From the IMG/VR virus record IMGVR_UViG_3300042546_000155: a stretch of DNA of 64,000 nt. One strand, 5' to 3'. Both the position numbers and the translations under genes were made by a program. This DNA comes from a virus. Shown here one piece after another: positions 47,666 to 64,000 of this stretch (its first letter is position 1; each line of letters starts with the position of its first letter). A model generated the notes under the pieces. The model was not told where the DNA came from. It saw only the letters and a program-made list of their open reading frames with translations, and made no database searches.

Positions 47666-50239
47666 ATGCTTAAGTCACAATCAATATCTTTTCAGTTGTT
47701 TAAGATATTGCCTATTCAGAAAAGAATGGATCTTGCTCAAAGTCCTGATGCAGGTGCAAGCCTTCTATCTGCATTGACTCCTACTCAATTTGCCGAGTTG
47801 TTCCCAAAGTATTATCAGAGAGCATTGCCTGATGTTGAAGGCTTTCAGTTAGCCGTAACAAAAAGAACTAGAGAGCAACAGCAAAAGGCCGACGGACAGT
47901 TACAAGAAAGATTGGCTAGCCTAGAATCAACCAACTCTGAATTAAGACAGGGTATGGAAAAGCTAGGTGTAGCTAGAGCAAAAGAATTACCTAAGCTATC
48001 ACCAGAGCAAGAGGCGGCATATAATACAATTAGAACGGCTGATGTTCCTGTTAATTCCGAACAGGGTAAAATGTTTGCCTCTTTAGATAACGAAAAACTT
48101 GCCTCCGTGGGTATTACAAAGACCAAAAATGAAAAGGGTGAAGAGGTATTACATTATACTGCTCCCGTCTCTACAAGAGAAGAGGCTGTTAGCAGACTGC
48201 AAACATCTGGCGGATCAGGTGCATCTATCGGCGAGCGCCTGGCGTTTTATAGACAATATGCTGCATCAAAAGGTGTTGATCCTGACCTAGTAACGGGTAT
48301 CGTTATGAGAGAAGGTGGTGGCACCAAGAATAGAATGCAAAGATGGGCAAACGATGATCCATCGAAGTCTGGTAAGCCCGGTACTGCATATGGCGATTTC
48401 CAATTAAATGTTGGTACAACTGTTCACAGAATGGGAAATGATTTTCTCAAAAAAGGTATTCCAATGGATTCTGCACATTGGAAAGAACAAGGTATGTTCG
48501 CTATCGATCAGATTAAGAATGGTCGTGTTCATGAGTGGATGTCTGTTAAAGACAACGGCGGCATTGAGAGAATTTCTCAGATAGGTTCCAATGAATGGAG
48601 AACCCACGCTTCTTCTGCTACACCTACAAAACCCGAAGGACCAAACGGACAATATTCTGACAAGCAGATTGCAGAAATGATATCACAACTCAATCAAGAA
48701 AAAGATGCAGCACGCCGTCAGCAACTTGCCAATGTTCTACAGGGTCAAGGTGTTCAAGTTCCTCCAGGAGCTACATCATCTGGTGCTGCCCGTGTTCCTG
48801 GTAGCGTCATCGGCGGGTTCTATGGCGAATCTCAACAATGTGTGGCACTATCTAAGCACTTTGCGCCACAAGTAGGTCCTGCCTCTAGCTGGAAAATCAA
48901 TTACGATTCTTCTGGCTCAGGTATCAAGCCTGGTTCTGTCATTGCTACTACATCATATAACGATGGCTCTGGTGGTAAGATGGCTAGAACAATGCCTGAT
49001 CATCGCAGCCACTATCATACAGGTATTGCTCTATCTGCACCAGATGCTCAAGGCAATGTTCTTATTCTAGATCAGTCTGCCGGTCGTGCCGCACAGATTC
49101 ATAAGGTAAACATTCACAACTATAATGGTGAGAAGTGGGGACTTGTGCCTGGTGGACAGCCAACACCACGCTCAATGCAAGCCGTTCATATGGCTATGGG
49201 CAGTGCCAATGATATCGAGAAGACAGCTATTAGCGATTCACTAGCTGGCAAAGCACCTACAGCACAATCAACCGCACCTGTTCAAGAGGTGAAGCAGGTA
49301 ACAGAGGCAACTAATACTGTTCCTAAAACTACTGAGAAGCAAGACCCTACTCCTGTATCTAATGCACCTGCGGCTGATGCAAAACAGCAAGCACAGGAAG
49401 CAAACAAGACTGCCGTTGTTGAGAAGACAGAACAGGCTCAGCCTGCCACACAAGATACAGCAAAGACGGCCGAAGTTGCTAAGCCTGCTGAAAAAGGTCC
49501 TAGTTCATACATGCTCAATAGAAATGAATTGATTTCTGCTATTAGAAACACCGATGAATTTAAGAACACTTTTGGATCTTCACTTGCTACAGATAGCATG
49601 ATCTATGAAGGCTTCTTTAATGATGCCCGCACTCAAAAGATTATGAAAGACACTGGATCAACATATGATGCTGCATCAGGCACAGTGAAGATTGGTGATT
49701 ATAAGAAGCTACAGGAAGCCATGCCTGATATGAATGTCAGTAAGTTCCTCAAGCCACTTAAGGGTGCTGCTAGAGGTGGTAACTTTAATGTTCCTGATGG
49801 TGGTCTAACCGCTTATCGTGCTATGGAAGGTAAAGACAATACTCTAGTTGTCGATAAGAATCAAAAGCCACTATTCACTATGAATGATAAGGAAGCTGCA
49901 TCTTTTGATCCTTCACAGAATAAAGTGAAGATTGATCCTAGCTTGAAAGCAAAAGGTGATATGAGAGGACAACAGCCTTCTCAAACGACTGGTGATAATT
50001 CAGAAGTCATGAATAGCATCAACTCACTTAGAAATGATATGATGGCGAGACTTAACAGCACTCCAGCGCCTACACCAATGCAGATTAGACCTGGTATGTC
50101 GGACACAGGCAACATGATTAATAACTTGCATGATATGACTAGAACGCCATATCTGAACCCTGCATTTGAAAGAGCGGTCAGAACTGCAAATGATGGGCAG
50201 CCTTCAAATCACTTTAATTTCGGTAACAAAAACGGATAA
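47666..50239 (+). CDS. Hub/tape-measure-like virion protein with lysozyme-like and Cys-His amidase domains
   Basis: YAASKGVDPDLVTGIVMREG...AYGDFQL (transglycosylase-like); QQCVAL..FAP..G..SSW...PGSVIAT...HTGI...ILDQ (Tae2/BPSL0067-like); follows gp51. Confidence 0.65.
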   Translation: MLKSQSISFQLFKILPIQKRMDLAQSPDAGASLLSALTPTQFAELFPKYYQRALPDVEGFQLAVTKRTREQQQKADGQLQERLASLESTNSELRQGMEKLGVARAKELPKLSPEQEAAYNTIRTADVPVNSEQGKMFASLDNEKLASVGITKTKNEKGEEVLHYTAPVSTREEAVSRLQTSGGSGASIGERLAFYRQYAASKGVDPDLVTGIVMREGGGTKNRMQRWANDDPSKSGKPGTAYGDFQLNVGTTVHRMGNDFLKKGIPMDSAHWKEQGMFAIDQIKNGRVHEWMSVKDNGGIERISQIGSNEWRTHASSATPTKPEGPNGQYSDKQIAEMISQLNQEKDAARRQQLANVLQGQGVQVPPGATSSGAARVPGSVIGGFYGESQQCVALSKHFAPQVGPASSWKINYDSSGSGIKPGSVIATTSYNDGSGGKMARTMPDHRSHYHTGIALSAPDAQGNVLILDQSAGRAAQIHKVNIHNYNGEKWGLVPGGQPTPRSMQAVHMAMGSANDIEKTAISDSLAGKAPTAQSTAPVQEVKQVTEATNTVPKTTEKQDPTPVSNAPAADAKQQAQEANKTAVVEKTEQAQPATQDTAKTAEVAKPAEKGPSSYMLNRNELISAIRNTDEFKNTFGSSLATDSMIYEGFFNDARTQKIMKDTGSTYDAASGTVKIGDYKKLQEAMPDMNVSKFLKPLKGAARGGNFNVPDGGLTAYRAMEGKDNTLVVDKNQKPLFTMNDKEAASFDPSQNKVKIDPSLKAKGDMRGQQPSQTTGDNSEVMNSINSLRNDMMARLNSTPAPTPMQIRPGMSDTGNMINNLHDMTRTPYLNPAFERAVRTANDGQPSNHFNFGNKNG

Positions 50240-51814: not shown

Positions 51815-52403
51815 CGACCTTCTCCTTCAGTATGTGTTTGAATTTCTCCTTATCATACTTTAGAAATGGTCTATACTTTTTCACCTTGAGTGAAACCTTA
51901 GGCCAAATCACATCATTGTCATAGTATTTATCAAACTTATCAGCATATCCTGTGAAGTCATTTAGAATTGTCATCGTCTCAATTGAGATTGACTTGCGTA
52001 GAAATAGAATCACAATATCTGGATATCTATCATTACTCACATTGAAGGACACTCTCGGATCATCTTCTTTGAAGACCTTTTGTATGTCATCGGCAAAGAG
52101 ATAAGACAAACTCTGTCTCCGTCTTGTATAGGCAGTATGAACATCATTTGCTTCTTCGCTTGCAAACTCTAATATGTAATGCTTGTCATCTAGAAGATTG
52201 GCAACATAGTGATCACGCAATTCTTCTGCATTGTATTCTTTGGCTAGTTTCTCATAGAACCATTTGTCATTTCGTTTTAGATATGACTCCTTGTTTGCAC
52301 GGAGTTTACCGTTCATTTGAAAGAAGTCATACTTTTGACTGGTGAAATGAGTCCTAAGTGCCAAGAATAGCAAATAGGACCCATAGCCTGTGAAATGTTT
52401 CAT
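51786..52403 (-). CDS. gp59: Helicase loader
   Basis: Y.LFLALRTHF...YDFF..NGK...YLKRND.WFYEKL...ISIET..IL...KYRPFL; synteny 33-59-32. Confidence 0.92.
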   Translation of the reverse strand: MKHFTGYGSYLLFLALRTHFTSQKYDFFQMNGKLRANKESYLKRNDKWFYEKLAKEYNAEELRDHYVANLLDDKHYILEFASEEANDVHTAYTRRRQSLSYLFADDIQKVFKEDDPRVSFNVSNDRYPDIVILFLRKSISIETMTILNDFTGYADKFDKYYDNDVIWPKVSLKVKKYRPFLKYDKEKFKHILKEKVDENTRGKRI

Positions 52404-53236
52404 CGAGTCTGTAGGTAAGGATCAATGTTCATTACTTCATCAACGGTCTGTGCTACGAAACCTTGGGACTGCTGCTGCATTGGAGGAAGACCATATGAGT
52501 CTAACATCTTGGCTGCCATTTCTTCTTTTATCTTATTATAAGAATCCTTGATCATATCAGATGTGAGACCTCTTAGATTTGAATACGGCTCATTAGGTGT
52601 TTCTAACACCCAACCTTCATTGAGGAACTTGTTCTTACGGTATATCTGATTTGGGTGTTCAAGTTGTTTATGGTTCCACTTGAGGACCTTATTCTTGATA
52701 CAGTCAAAGGTCTCACGGTTGATATAGAGTTTATCCTCTAGAGGATCATATGACACCTTGCAATGCTTATAATCAAAGTGTGCTAGTAGTTCCTCACGAG
52801 TCTGATACTTGGTGAGAATATACTGTGCCTGCGTTCTATGATTATTGATCACATCAACAATGTTTGTATTGTGCATATAAGACATCATTTCGGAACGTGA
52901 CCATTCCGTGTCTGCAAAAGGAACATCATCAAAGATTGAATTGATAGGTGTGATAGGATTGTAGGCGGCCGCCATTGCCTTTTTCGCCGCTTCTTCTCTT
53001 TCACTCTGCTTCTTGAAACCTTCTGTCAGGTGGTTATAAACACCAACATCATTATTCAATACAAAGATATCAATGTCCTTGAACTTAATATTCTTTAGGA
53101 CATTTGTAAAGAATCCACCAGCAATCACAACATTATTGCCATACAGACCCGATAAGAGATTTCGTGTTTTGATTAGAGATTTGATTGCTCTTTTGGATTC
53201 TTCAATATCATACTTTTCATTATCACTAAACATCAT
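52400..53236 (-). CDS. Nucleotidyltransferase-fold protein (Pol-beta / PolyA-pol head-like)
   Basis: VVIAGGFF...KDIDIF (hG[GS]...DxD) and later FDY..C motif. Confidence 0.7.
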   Translation of the reverse strand: MMFSDNEKYDIEESKRAIKSLIKTRNLLSGLYGNNVVIAGGFFTNVLKNIKFKDIDIFVLNNDVGVYNHLTEGFKKQSEREEAAKKAMAAAYNPITPINSIFDDVPFADTEWSRSEMMSYMHNTNIVDVINNHRTQAQYILTKYQTREELLAHFDYKHCKVSYDPLEDKLYINRETFDCIKNKVLKWNHKQLEHPNQIYRKNKFLNEGWVLETPNEPYSNLRGLTSDMIKDSYNKIKEEMAAKMLDSYGLPPMQQQSQGFVAQTVDEVMNIDPYLQTR

Positions 53237-53245
53237 GTCACCATA

Positions 53246-53470
53246 TTAAAGAGGGAGTTGGGAGGTATCCGATTTCTTGAGGAAGTGTAGATTTTCGGCT
53301 TCTAGTTTGATTTTGGATTTAAGAACACCAGAGACTAACTTAGCGGCTACTTCTACCTCAAAACCGTTTTCGTCGCAATACATACAGATTGCATCGATAT
53401 AAGGTATGTCTTTCATATAGACCATTTCTTCAATGGCCATAGAAAAGCGATTGATATCTTCGGCGTTCAT
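53246..53470 (-). CDS. gp33: Late-transcription coactivator (likely start MNAEDIN at 53470)
   Basis: FSMAIEE.V....YIDAI..YC.EN..EVE.AAKL....LKSKI..EA..L.FL; ATGA coupling with the upstream ORF. Confidence 0.9.
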   Translation of the reverse strand: MNAEDINRFSMAIEEMVYMKDIPYIDAICMYCDENGFEVEVAAKLVSGVLKSKIKLEAENLHFLKKSDTSQLPL

Positions 53471-53661
53471 ACAAACATACCAAAGATGCCAGAGAGAAGG
53501 GAGATTGTGATAGCAGAGGCGATAGTGATTTCGATTACTCCTGTTGCCCAATAACCAAGAATAGAACCTAGAAACAAACCAGCGAAGGCACAGATATAGA
53601 CATTGGTGCTTAGAGCAAAGTTAAACTCACGCATACCAGTGTATTTGTCTTTCTCACTCAT
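53467..53661 (-). CDS. Small two-TM membrane protein
   Basis: Two hydrophobic segments; AAAGGA SD; immediately downstream of the tmRNA coding piece. Confidence 0.7.
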   Translation of the reverse strand: MSEKDKYTGMREFNFALSTNVYICAFAGLFLGSILGYWATGVIEITIASAITISLLSGIFGMFV

Positions 53662-53679
53662 AATATAATCCTTTCATGA

Positions 53680-53832
53680 AAGCGGGCCCGTTCTGTTTCG
53701 AGGTGGAGCCCATACCCAAAGGATTACGCTGCTAGAGCGAAAGCCTCATATGCATTGTTGTCGTTTGCATTTACGATTTGCTTTCGATCTCCTTACGACC
53801 TTACTGAATCCTGTCGAACCTGAATCCGGCCC
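53680..53832 (-). ncRNA. ssrA: Two-piece tmRNA, coding piece (5' acceptor strand, D-loop, tag reading frame)
   Basis: Starts GGGCCGG-AUUCAGGUUCGAC at 53832. After UAAAU, resume codon GCA (53768) reads ANDNNAYEAFALAA-UAA (stop 53724-53726). 3' GGGCUC...AACAGAAC-GGGCCC element. 3' end approximate. Confidence 0.93.
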
Positions 53833-53833
53833 A

Positions 53834-54268
53834 TCATAAAGAAACATGAGGATTGGTTTTCTTCATTACAGATTTCAATCTGCCTCTCCACCATCCTACA
53901 GGATGTTCATTCAAAGAAAACTGACCTTCAGCGTAGCCATCATTGAACCAATATCTTTGAGTTCTAATCTTACGACCATCAGTTCCCGTAGGATACTTTC
54001 TCTCTTTCTTTGAATGGTTTGCCCATCTAAGAGTGTTCGTAAGTTCTGCTCCTTTTTTGGCGCCTTCATTGATTGCGATAAAAGAACATTCATCGGAAGT
54101 TAGTAATCCCAACAAACCTTTCCAAGCAATCAAATCTTGCCAGTGTCCATGTTCCTCATATAGTTTCTTATGCGCTTCGGCATGTTCCTCTATAGTGAGT
54201 TCAACGATATTTTCTGGTTCATCATTCCCACCCATATGTTTAGGAATGATATGGTGCTTATGTTTCAT
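53834..54268 (-). CDS. HNH homing endonuclease-like protein inside the tmRNA intervening segment
   Basis: HKHHIIPKHMGG.D...N.V.LT.EEH..AH (HNH); C-terminal WFNDG...GW.RGR motif of phage HEG DNA-binding modules; AGGAG SD. Confidence 0.88.
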   Translation of the reverse strand: MKHKHHIIPKHMGGNDEPENIVELTIEEHAEAHKKLYEEHGHWQDLIAWKGLLGLLTSDECSFIAINEGAKKGAELTNTLRWANHSKKERKYPTGTDGRKIRTQRYWFNDGYAEGQFSLNEHPVGWWRGRLKSVMKKTNPHVSL

Positions 54269-54274
54269 AATAAT

Positions 54275-54308
54275 CTCCTGTCGATATTACTATTTATAAA
54301 TCGACAAG
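54275..54308 (-). promoter_or_regulatory. Late promoter TATAAATA in the loop of a hairpin covering the HNH RBS
   Basis: CTTGTCGAT(54308-54300)-TTATAAATAGTAAT-ATCGACAGG(54285-54277); the 3' arm overlaps SD AGGAG (54279-54275). Confidence 0.85.
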
Positions 54309-54324
54309 TTTTCACATTTCCTTA

Positions 54325-54392
54325 TGGTGGACCGGGTGGGAACTGCCCCCACGTCCAAGAAGCCTATATTCCGTCTCTCAACGATCTAAGCA
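54325..54392 (-). ncRNA. ssrA: Two-piece tmRNA, acceptor piece (T-arm, 3' acceptor strand, CCA)
   Basis: GGAC-GUGGG-GGCAGUU-CCCAC-CCGGUCC-A-CCA ends at 54325. CCGGUCC pairs with GGGCCGG (G3-U70, discriminator A). UGCUUAGAUC pairs with GAUCGAAAGCA of the coding piece. 5' end approximate. Confidence 0.93.
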
Positions 54393-54395
54393 TAT

Positions 54396-54426
54396 TATTT
54401 ATAACATACGGTGAGTTTTTTGTCAA
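54396..54426 (-). promoter_or_regulatory. tmRNA promoter: sigma70 TTGACA-N17-TATAAA overlapping T4 late TATAAATA
   Basis: -35 at 54426-54421, 17-nt spacer, TATAAATA at 54403-54396. Confidence 0.88.
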
Positions 54427-54428
54427 GA

Positions 54429-54743
54429 CTAAAGTGGTGCAAAAGTTTTATTATGTCCGTCTATTGATAGAGTTATGGAACGGACATAGCCACACTCTTT
54501 GGTTCCAGGAATGGAGAACTCACCGCTACCATGCCTGTGAAATGAAGGAGCATTACACTCACCACCATTAATACTAGCCAACGAAACATCAATCACCTTC
54601 TTCGCTTTACAGTGGATGATATGACTATCACTAACTTTCTTTTCACATGAAACATCTTCTGACGCCAATGCTGGTGTGTTACTCAGTATCAAGAGTATTT
54701 TCAAAATCCTCAATGAGAGGGACCGGGGGTTCTTTAGTTGCAT
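54429..54743 (-). CDS. Putative exported Cys-containing protein (start uncertain)
   Basis: Hydrophobic stretch followed by ALA-S signal-like cleavage site; four Cys. Confidence 0.55.
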   Translation of the reverse strand: MQLKNPRSLSLRILKILLILSNTPALASEDVSCEKKVSDSHIIHCKAKKVIDVSLASINGGECNAPSFHRHGSGEFSIPGTKECGYVRSITLSIDGHNKTFAPL

Positions 54744-54853
54744 GGCTTACTAGTCGTGTCCCGTATAATGCACTCACCGACGGTCGCCACCAGACAACCA
54801 GACAAGCCCAAACTAAGAAACACCAATGCGATTGCTAGATATACTTTCTTCAT
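54734..54853 (-). CDS. Small lipoprotein (39 aa; not in ORF track)
   Basis: My translation: MKKVYLAIALVFLSLGLSGCLVATVGECIIRDTTSKPCN*. Lipobox LSG-C, GGAGG SD, ATGA coupling. Confidence 0.8.
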   Translation of the reverse strand: MKKVYLAIALVFLSLGLSGCLVATVGECIIRDTTSKPCN

Positions 54854-55053
54854 TTGAATACCTCCCAAAACTGGTTCATTGCCTTTTCGTAACCGGCAAT
54901 CATTTCTTTTGCTTCTTTTAATGTATCACACATCTTCAATAGTTTGACACCTTGCGGATCATTTTCCATATACGCAAATTGACCTGTATATGTCATTGCA
55001 CAGACCACCTTACGATCATCGGAATGAAAAACTGTATCGCTCAACCGTTTCAT
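54850..55053 (-). CDS. Hypothetical protein (67 aa)
   Basis: ATGA-coupled at both ends. Confidence 0.65.
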   Translation of the reverse strand: MKRLSDTVFHSDDRKVVCAMTYTGQFAYMENDPQGVKLLKMCDTLKEAKEMIAGYEKAMNQFWEVFK

Positions 55054-63808: not shown

Positions 63809-64000
63809 CTATCGATTAGGTAGACTATTCAAGGCTTGGACTGGGCCATACCGGTCGTCCATGTCATAATACAGGGAATCGATAATCCCCCCGACCATGT
63901 CACGGTCGACCTTGAGAGCGGACCGGGCGTTTACATACTCGACCACATCGCCGAGATAATAAGCGCCAGCTTCAATAGCATCGCCCACGAGTTCCACGAT
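63809..64000 (-). CDS. Hypothetical protein, probably truncated by the window end
   Basis: Frame is open to the window edge. Confidence 0.5.
   Translation of the reverse strand: MVELVGDAIEAGAYYLGDVVEYVNARSALKVDRDMVGGIIDSLYYDMDDRYGPVQALNSLPNR

Follow-up and report, generated by a model that had tools for sequence, protein, structure and literature searches.

This work describes a viral gene for transfer-messenger RNA (tmRNA) whose two mature RNA pieces are separated by an intact gene for an HNH endonuclease. The locus lies on the minus strand of a 64,000-nt stretch of IMG/VR virus record IMGVR_UViG_3300042546_000155; that whole stretch is referred to here as the window, and positions without another designation are counted along it. 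A preliminary description of the window had placed a two-piece tmRNA gene at positions 53680 to 54392. These coordinates are correct, but a protein gene of 435 nt inside them went unmentioned. In the direction of transcription, the locus consists of the acceptor piece (CCA end at 54325), a spacer, and the coding piece, which starts with G1 at 53832. By the layout of permuted genes, the spacer is an intervening sequence (IVS) of 492 nt (53833 to 54324, minus strand) that is not part of the mature RNA. According to the listing of open reading frames (ORFs), the HNH endonuclease gene (144 amino acids, 435 nt) occupies 53834 to 54268 on the same strand.

Structure and conservation of the tmRNA gene

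The acceptor piece, which is the first part of the permuted gene, was delimited from Rfam alignments, coordinates, and cofolding at 54325 to 54393 (minus strand), with a putative 5' end at 54393. It contains a T-stem formed by GUGGG (54352-54348) and CCCAC (54340-54336), the T-loop GGCAGUU (54347-54341), the acceptor 3' strand CCGGUCC (54335-54329), the discriminator A (54328), and an encoded CCA (54327-54325), and it also supplies the 5' side of the helices between the pieces. In the alignment with the RF01849 consensus (GGCgGUA), the T-loop agrees with the alpha-type sequence GGCRGUA, found instead of the usual GGUUCRAnUCC, but its last base is U and not A. The coding piece (53681 to 53832, minus strand; its 3' end is the end of the Rfam model) is 92 to 99% identical to that of syntenic relatives. 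It begins with the acceptor 5' strand GGGCCGG (53832-53826); its other elements are a D-like region (GGUUCGAC), the 3' partners of the inter-piece helices, the frame for the tag, and a 3' domain of the alpha type (ACCUCGAAACAGAA). Together, GGGCCGG and CCGGUCC form a 7-bp acceptor stem with a G3:U70 pair, followed by the discriminator A, as in the identity elements of tRNA-Ala. Cofolding of the two pieces recovered the acceptor stem, the T-arm, and the helices UGCUU/AAGCA, GAUC/GAUC, and UCUUG/CAGGA. The 7-bp stem with G3-U70, discriminator A, encoded CCA, and GGCAGUU T-loop named in the preliminary description are all present on the minus strand, and the inter-piece pairings that it proposed appear in the cofold.

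The tag frame (53724 to 53768, minus strand) opens with the alanine resume codon GCA, encodes the peptide ANDNNAYEAFALAA, which ends in a hydrophobic degron of the ...(L/V)AA type, and closes with the stop codon UAA. Across relatives, the 42 nt of this frame contain 7 variable sites, of which 6 are synonymous third-position changes and 1 replaces F with I. The calculated chance of at least 6 of 7 changes falling at third positions is ∼0.007, and the tag is therefore under selection at the peptide level. Two of the changes also preserve a small helix around the resume codon. The acceptor stem varies among relatives in a compensatory manner (CCGGUCC/GGGCCGG, CGCCUCC/GGGGGCG, and CACCUCC/GGGGGUG), and G3:U70 is always retained. 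The synonymous tag changes and compensatory acceptor stems argue for a translated, functional tmRNA, which would need host SmpB.

Two Rfam covariance models detected the gene above their gathering scores: tmRNA_permuted (RF04321) on the minus strand from 54386 to 53724 with 62.5 bits (gathering score, 47) and alpha_tmRNA (RF01849) from 54430 to 53681 with 51.4 bits (gathering score, 50). The beta and cyano tmRNA models scored lower and were dropped in clan competition. The acceptor piece of the window matched an nhmmer profile made from those of 112 viral loci (E = 6.7e-9), and a 45-nt profile of the coding piece was too insensitive. Compact alleles of syntenic relatives, whose mature pieces are nearly the same, reach 82 to 105 bits; the borderline alpha score of the window is thus attributed to the penalty on its 492-nt insertion. 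ARAGORN called no tmRNA in the window or in the whole genome, presumably because the pieces lie 492 nt apart, and since the Rfam and comparative data are clear, we do not accept this silence as proof of absence. The genome contains only one tmRNA gene. Judged by covariance scores and comparison with relatives, the locus is a genuine phage-encoded, circularly permuted two-piece tmRNA gene of the alphaproteobacterial type, and the identification of such a gene with an ...ALAA tag in the preliminary description stands. Processing of a precursor to two paired RNAs, alanylation, and SmpB-dependent trans-translation are predicted from these features. No smpB gene had been found in the window, and our check of the whole 174.5-kb genome likewise found none; dependence on the SmpB of the host is the natural inference from such a genome.

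The HNH gene within the spacer

The HNH gene is fitted closely to the RNA pieces around it. The UGA that closes its frame (53836-53834) is part of a conserved AUGAU leader and stops 1 nt short of G1 of the coding piece, and a Shine-Dalgarno sequence, AGGAG (54279-54275), is located 6 nt before its AUG. The protein matched PHROG 655, annotated as "homing endonuclease," with an E value of 7e-13, and all 16 aligned members of the family share the motif HH..P....GG.N....N...L....H..AH without variation. An AlphaFold model (predicted local distance difference test score, 76.6) gave local matches only, which were to the beta-beta-alpha-Me cores of colicin, pyocin, and Gme HNH nucleases (0.8 to 1.9 Å over 35 to 39 columns). 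The family as a whole combines a nearly invariant N-terminal nuclease module with several different C-terminal modules, and the spacer residents nearest to that of the window have one common ending, ...GW.RGRL.SVM.K.NP.VSL. We read the 144-residue protein as a candidate homing endonuclease that would target tmRNA genes and use the spacer as a safe harbour.

To place the spacer among others, we scanned for alpha-type acceptor pieces by pattern, which gave at least 120 viral loci. Among the matches listed, the spacer was measurable in 108 loci and ranged from 4 to 266 nt; the remaining 13, for which the regular expression found no coding piece, are compact Rfam matches, with the exception of L066 (numbers of this form denote our viral loci), whose contig ends 13 nt past CCA. 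The IVS of the window is the longest of these 121 viral alpha-type permuted tmRNA genes. It is closed by a helix in which the 5' arm AAGGAAAUGUG (54313 to 54323, minus strand) pairs with 53848-53838; the 3' arm, CAUGUUUCUUU (53838 to 53848, minus strand), also provides the last HNH codons (H V S L). This duplex has a predicted energy of -12.6 kcal/mol, compared with -5.5 ± 1.8 kcal/mol for shuffled tails, and 0 of 200 shuffles reached its value. A closing helix of 10 to 13 bp, formed by the first bases of the IVS and the bases just before the AUGAU leader, was present in all 11 alleles tested, at -9.6 to -16.7 kcal/mol (shuffled tails, about -3 to -6) and in at least six different sequences. 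In the four HNH-bearing alleles of this kind, the 3' arm coincides with the last codons of the ORF, and compensatory differences in L126, L127, and L201 preserve the helix as well as the end of the peptide. It follows that the insertion has been shaped to retain what is presumably a processing determinant of the precursor. The 98-nt IVS of L205, an allele lacking the HNH gene, contains two T-arm-like minihelices (GGUGGUUCGAUUCCACC and GAGGUUCGAUUCCUC), which may be tRNA-like remnants of past recombination at the site.

Relatives of the HNH gene beside other viral tmRNA genes

A total of 186 relatives of the HNH protein were found in viral contigs, and the best 80 of these were examined with ARAGORN, the acceptor-piece nhmmer profile, Rfam, and direct reading; the arrangements listed next and the count of loci that touch a tmRNA gene refer to those 80. 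The HNH gene lies in the spacer of a permuted tmRNA gene in the window and in L121 to L125, L126, L127 to L129, L131, and L133. The gene in L126 encodes the tag ANDSNYNYALAA and matches RF04321 with 55.1 bits across the HNH ORF, those in L127 to L129 encode ANESVYQLAA, that in L131 encodes ANTNAKPETLALAA (RF04321, 46.0 bits, E = 3e-6), and L133 matches RF04321 with 59.1 bits. Elsewhere, the HNH gene is directly upstream of the tmRNA gene on the same strand (L130 and L155) or divergently adjacent to it, 14 to 68 nt from the tmRNA start (L132, L135, L136, L137, L138, and L144). About 21 loci (∼12 nonredundant) touch a tmRNA gene, always on the side of the acceptor piece, and the tmRNA genes that the family adjoins are of both the alpha and beta types. 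At least six diverged tmRNA lineages have a family member in the spacer, each with an intact acceptor stem and tag. In the reverse test, 1 of 120 tmRNA loci picked regardless of HNH (among the matches listed) had a family match, which was weak. Among isolated GenBank phages, none has the HNH-in-spacer arrangement, and the protein is represented by its catalytic half at most; the relatives in cyanophages S-SKS1, S-SRM01, and RB11-B comprise this catalytic half only and are not beside tmRNA genes.

Two further observations concern the borders of these HNH genes. In L133 and L131, the HNH frame runs ∼15 to 25 nt past G1 into the mature coding piece, such that the same bases encode the C terminus of the protein and the acceptor 5' strand with the D-like region. 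In three of the divergent arrangements, a second, partial acceptor-piece-like fragment is located just past the other end of the HNH gene (L135, 3667-3729; L138, 3591-3655; and L136, 596-722, minus strand). In these loci, sequence derived from tmRNA genes thus flanks the HNH gene on both sides, as if insertion had produced a duplication.

Alleles with and without the HNH gene

For comparison at a constant genomic position, 23 syntenic loci were gathered with the 278-residue protein encoded downstream of the tmRNA gene as bait. In L205 to L219 and L221 to L223, the syntenic site is occupied by a compact, HNH-free tmRNA gene with an IVS of 70 to 110 nt. The mature pieces of these alleles are 90 to 99% identical to those of the window, and the flanking genes are 79 to 91% identical at the nucleotide level; given this identity of the flanks themselves, the idea that homing had homogenised the tmRNA far beyond its flanks was dropped. 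The HNH-free spacers are unrelated sequences with a common closing helix and a (U/A)UGAU leader before G1. Three HNH-free alleles (L209, L211, and L219) have the acceptor stem of the window.

A second HNH-bearing allele, L201 to L204, was recovered from four metagenomes and is identical across the locus. Its HNH protein (156 amino acids, with a start 10 nt after CCA) is 61% identical to that of the window. The allele agrees with the window in its leader, tag region, and 3' domain, but the tRNA-like domain differs on both sides of the HNH gene, with a canonical GGUUCAAAUCC T-arm, the acceptor stem CACCUCC/GGGGGUG, and another D-like region. An HNH gene far more diverged than its backbone, with swapped flanks, is the product expected of homing with co-conversion (for the mechanism, see PMC2988022), and the exchange of the tRNA-like domain in L201 to L204 is consistent with such co-conversion.

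Population evidence was obtained by comparing the contigs of four lake runs with positions 53200 to 54900. Contigs of three lake runs that were not flagged as a possible source carry the HNH-bearing allele with zero differences (X18 record 12 corresponds to 53681-54361 and X16 record 5 to 53797-54364), and depth rises 5- to 20-fold over the two mature pieces only. Other lake contigs part from the window sequence precisely at 54323/54324 and 53836. When reverse-complemented, the diverging contig ends read as the starts and ends of HNH-free spacers, as in L214 and L207; the same lakes thus contain alleles with and without the HNH gene.

Promoter and hairpin

The promoter region of the tmRNA gene (54396 to 54426, minus strand), as read from the sequence, consists of TTGACA (54426-54421), 17 nt, and TATAAATA (54403-54396), a sequence that is at the same time a late-promoter motif of the T4 type. 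The arrangement TTGAC(A/T)-N17-TATAAATA is kept in ten syntenic relatives, among which the spacer and the upstream sequence vary. A second copy of TATAAATA (54298-54291) lies in the upper part of a predicted hairpin (54277 to 54308, minus strand; -12.2 kcal/mol, z = -3.2), the 3' arm of which covers the AGG of the HNH Shine-Dalgarno sequence. The same layout of hairpin and TATAAATA, with other stem sequences, precedes the HNH gene in L127 to L129, L131, L133, and L155, and it occurs with CATAAATA in L130.

Genome, habitat, and host

The record that holds the window comprises 174,499 bp and is rated complete, with 41.4% G+C, a 209-bp terminal repeat, and 25 tRNA genes. The phage is a T4-like myovirus (gp59, gp32, gp6, baseplate and tail proteins, and TerL). 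Its TerL is ∼53% identical to those of cyanomyoviruses and pelagimyophage Mosig, and its gp6 is nearest to those of Methylophilales phage Melnitz and Pelagibacter phage HTVC008M (37 to 39%). A megablast search of 24 kb against GenBank phages gave no match. Of the sampled genome words, 94 to 100% are present in each of 20 metagenome runs from lakes or freshwater (2016 to 2024) and 4% in each of four RNA or possible-RNA runs (marine and wastewater).

Several neighbouring genes deserve mention. A 64-residue predicted membrane protein is encoded at 53467 to 53661 (minus strand), with its start 20 nt past the 3' end of the tmRNA and no terminator between; the gene is probably co-transcribed with the tmRNA gene, and its position is kept in relatives. 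The 278-residue protein used as bait (52400 to 53236, minus strand) is encoded ∼450 nt downstream of the tmRNA gene on the same strand; it matches nucleotidyltransferase PHROGs (phrog_1614, 5e-9; phrog_4400, 2e-12), and its gene keeps its place beside the tmRNA gene in 23 related contigs. An ORF of 857 codons at 47666 to 50239 (plus strand) is oriented opposite to its neighbours and gave no tblastn match among 50,697 GenBank phage records. Just past window position 64000, the genome encodes an intact RtcB RNA ligase (G000:C1:25491-26624; Pfam PF01139, 426 bits). RtcB, the 25 tRNAs, and the tmRNA show a heavy investment in translation and RNA upkeep.

The type of the tmRNA had been taken to indicate an alphaproteobacterial host, which our results do not support. 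Phage Melnitz carries an alpha-type two-piece tmRNA, yet its host, OM43, is not an alphaproteobacterium (PMC9004378), and no bacterial genome searched matched the gene described here: the exact tag ANDNNAYEAFALAA was found in 0 of 185,579 species-representative bacterial genomes, and BLAST with the coding piece at the DNA level matched 0 of 401 sampled alphaproteobacterial genomes. A loosened tag pattern gave two matches, one in a Methylopilaceae metagenome-assembled genome (MAG), with the tag ANDNF..EEFAVAA, and one in what is probably a misbinned phage contig. The cyanophage marker psbA is absent from the genome, and a cyanobacterial host is thus without support. The alpha type is a statement about the ancestry of the tmRNA and says nothing of the host. 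Two related sequences were noted during these searches. The 44-kb contig L229 (JASBTZ010000017.1, labelled a Bacteroidota MAG) contains an alpha-type permuted tmRNA gene with the tag ANDNFVSEEFALAA as well as eight tRNA genes, has a strong TTGACA/TATAAT promoter, and appears to be phage sequence placed in the bin of a bacterial MAG. In the 469-kb jumbo phage Phosso of Sinorhizobium (PV764938.1), an unannotated stretch (349552-349642) is 83% identical to the coding piece over its tag end and 3' domain, which probably reveals an alpha-type tmRNA absent from the annotation.

Proposed mechanism

We propose that the phage encodes a functional permuted tmRNA and that a selfish gene for an HNH homing endonuclease has invaded its excised IVS, a reading to which we assign a probability of roughly 0.7. 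A single precursor would be transcribed from the upstream TTGACA-N17-TATAAATA promoter. Host RNase P would cut before G1 (53832), and 3' trimming would halt at CCA (54325); the released pieces would pair, be charged with alanine, and function with host SmpB. As the spacer would be discarded, a gene lodged there would impose no cost on the RNA. The hairpin would mask the ribosome-binding site of the HNH gene both in the long precursor and in the spacer after excision. Late transcripts starting from the TATAAATA within the hairpin would be without its 5' arm and would permit translation of the HNH protein, as in T4 I-TevI, segB, and Aeh1 mobE. During co-infection, the nuclease would cut tmRNA alleles without the HNH gene, either within the conserved acceptor piece or close to it, and repair would copy the HNH-bearing spacer, with the conserved mature pieces serving as homology arms and the tRNA-like domain sometimes being co-converted.

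Several points weigh against this reading. RNA processing, tagging, HNH expression, and cleavage are all inferred from sequence. The Pfam HNH match, at 18 bits, falls under the cutoff of 21.4, and the fold search with the HNH model gave no significant match for the whole protein, the C-terminal module included. The T-arm and acceptor stem of the window are identical to those of the HNH-free allele L209, which leaves unexplained how the HNH-bearing genome would avoid cutting itself. With regard to expression, the upstream promoter is passed over by a consensus scanner because its -10 hexamer has A at position 6, the window shows no enrichment of TATAAATA, with 4 matches versus 5.1 expected, and L201 and L126, which have the HNH gene in the spacer, are without the hairpin and TATAAATA. 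The proposed control is thus not universal, and it is position and recurrence that suggest a late promoter.

Alternative explanations

An assembly artefact, in which a chimeric contig joined an HNH gene between tmRNA halves, would be conceivable for a record that is a metagenome assembly and nothing further; it is refuted by independent Logan contigs from runs of 2017, 2020, and 2023, which span the junctions without differences, and it also conflicts with the presence of the genome words in the 20 lake runs and with the recurrence of the layout in other lineages. We likewise regard it as very improbable that the insertion disabled the tmRNA and that the locus is a decaying pseudogene. An IVS ∼5 to 7 times the length of those in relatives, an alpha model score barely above the cutoff, and the missing ARAGORN call would fit decay, but the mature pieces remain 90 to 99% identical to HNH-free alleles, the tag frame is intact, and the closing helix and AUGAU leader are kept before G1. 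Moreover, HNH-bearing tmRNA genes persist with intact acceptor stems and tags in the six or more diverged lineages described above.

The locus could be an ordinary phage tmRNA gene, recently derived from and used in an alphaproteobacterial host and kept mainly against mRNA- or tRNA-cleaving defences, with spacer content that is incidental. The rank of alpha_tmRNA as best clan member, the similar tag type in the Methylopilaceae MAG, and the fit of RtcB (a weak piece of context) and 25 tRNAs with translation upkeep speak for this possibility. We nevertheless consider it unlikely: Melnitz, which infects OM43, has a tmRNA of the same type (PMC9004378), the exact tag is absent from the 185,579 species genomes, and the failure of all 401 alphaproteobacterial genomes to match the coding piece gives no sign of recent capture. 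In addition, the content of the spacer is not incidental, being an intact gene whose relatives are associated with tmRNA genes in many lineages. The HNH gene might instead be kept for the benefit of the phage, through marker exclusion by cutting the tmRNA genes of rivals or through action on the RNA or its precursor. Intact ORFs, the invariant catalytic module, and the occurrence in many lineages would suit such a role, and T4 SegB and SegG cause preferential inheritance or exclusion (PMC2988022). However, the distribution is sporadic: most close relatives are without the HNH gene, and the reverse test found a family member near 1 of the 120 listed tmRNA loci. We know of no link of such HNH nucleases to RNA processing, and exclusion and selfish homing can both hold; benefit to the phage as the reason for retention is improbable in our view. 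A functional tmRNA with a selfish HNH gene in its spacer remains our preferred reading.

We also lean, with somewhat less assurance, toward a broader form of that reading, in which the permuted tmRNA spacer is a general, ribozyme-free equivalent of an intron for homing endonuclease genes. Host tRNA-end processing would remove the gene, the mature pieces would provide both target and homology arms, and the ORF would have co-evolved with the RNA, its last codons forming the closing helix and its stop codon lying in the RNase P leader. A dedicated HNH lineage would have spread in this manner among the alpha- and beta-type tmRNAs of aquatic phages, shuffling tRNA-like domains as it moved. A permuted RNA gene already discards its middle, which amounts to free space with ideal targets and homology arms on either side. 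As the mosaic alleles show, phages can exchange the tRNA-like domains of their tmRNAs as cassettes. For genome annotation, pipelines will call the HNH gene and overlook the RNA around it, and censuses of phage tmRNAs based on ARAGORN, the tool of the census in PMC9004378, miss such genes.

Comparison with known systems

Two-piece tmRNAs in phages are already published (PMC9004378), and the presence of one is by itself of modest interest. That census reported 53 two-piece tmRNAs called by ARAGORN in phage genomes, 50 of them aquatic, and it mentions neither an HNH gene nor an intervening sequence. Melnitz and the pelagimyophages resemble the phage described here in being T4-like aquatic myoviruses with an alpha-type permuted ssrA gene and no SmpB (PMC9004378). 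The present system differs in that it is from freshwater, that our Rfam search found no glutamine riboswitch, and that its spacer contains an endonuclease gene.

Endonuclease genes inside tmRNA genes are known from group I introns in the T-loop, in which LAGLIDADG genes occupy a segment of the tmRNA gene that is removed; an endonuclease gene is present in 23 of 844 such introns (PMC11915505). Those introns rely on self-splicing by a ribozyme and on religation, whereas the spacer of the window involves no intron, no religation, and what would be ordinary tRNA-end processing. The 2025 tmRNA database records endonuclease genes only in the T-loop group I introns, and the oddities that it lists in permuted spacers are a tRNA-Ala gene and a repeat element (PMC11915505).

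A close parallel in organization is SegB, a free-standing GIY-YIG homing endonuclease encoded in the tRNA gene cluster of T4, as summarized in PMC2988022 (citing Brok-Volchanskaya 2008). According to that summary, the segB gene also lies between stable-RNA segments of a T4-like phage, with a hairpin that masks its ribosome-binding site and a predicted late promoter; SegB targets this RNA-gene region in related phages, and its transcript is cut by RNA-processing enzymes of the host. SegB belongs to the GIY-YIG rather than the HNH family, and its gene is situated between separate tRNA genes, not inside one gene whose halves later pair. In the same account, its cleavage and homing are demonstrated, whereas both are predictions for the HNH protein of the window. 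More generally, in I-TevI, I-TevII, I-TevIII, and segB of T4 and mobE of Aeh1, a hairpin is combined with a late promoter such that late transcripts are without the inhibitory arm (PMC2988022), and the predicted layout in the window resembles it; in contrast to the T4 control, TATAAATA is not enriched in the window, and the hairpin is missing from L201 and L126. The mob genes join an HNH domain to distinct C-terminal regions (PMC2988022), as does the family described here. The "fractured genes" outlined in PMC2677866 are similar in having a free-standing endonuclease gene between halves that are made separately and reassemble. Their products are proteins joined by trans-splicing inteins, whereas in the window the halves are base-paired RNAs and the permutation predates the endonuclease.

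Full-text literature searching turned up no paper in which a permuted tmRNA is connected with a gene for an HNH or homing endonuclease. The new part of this system is accordingly a free-standing homing endonuclease of the T4 type harboured in the excised spacer of a permuted RNA gene. The textbook harbours of homing endonuclease genes within essential, conserved genes are self-splicing introns and inteins. The window locus suggests a third harbour, one that needs neither catalytic RNA nor protein splicing.

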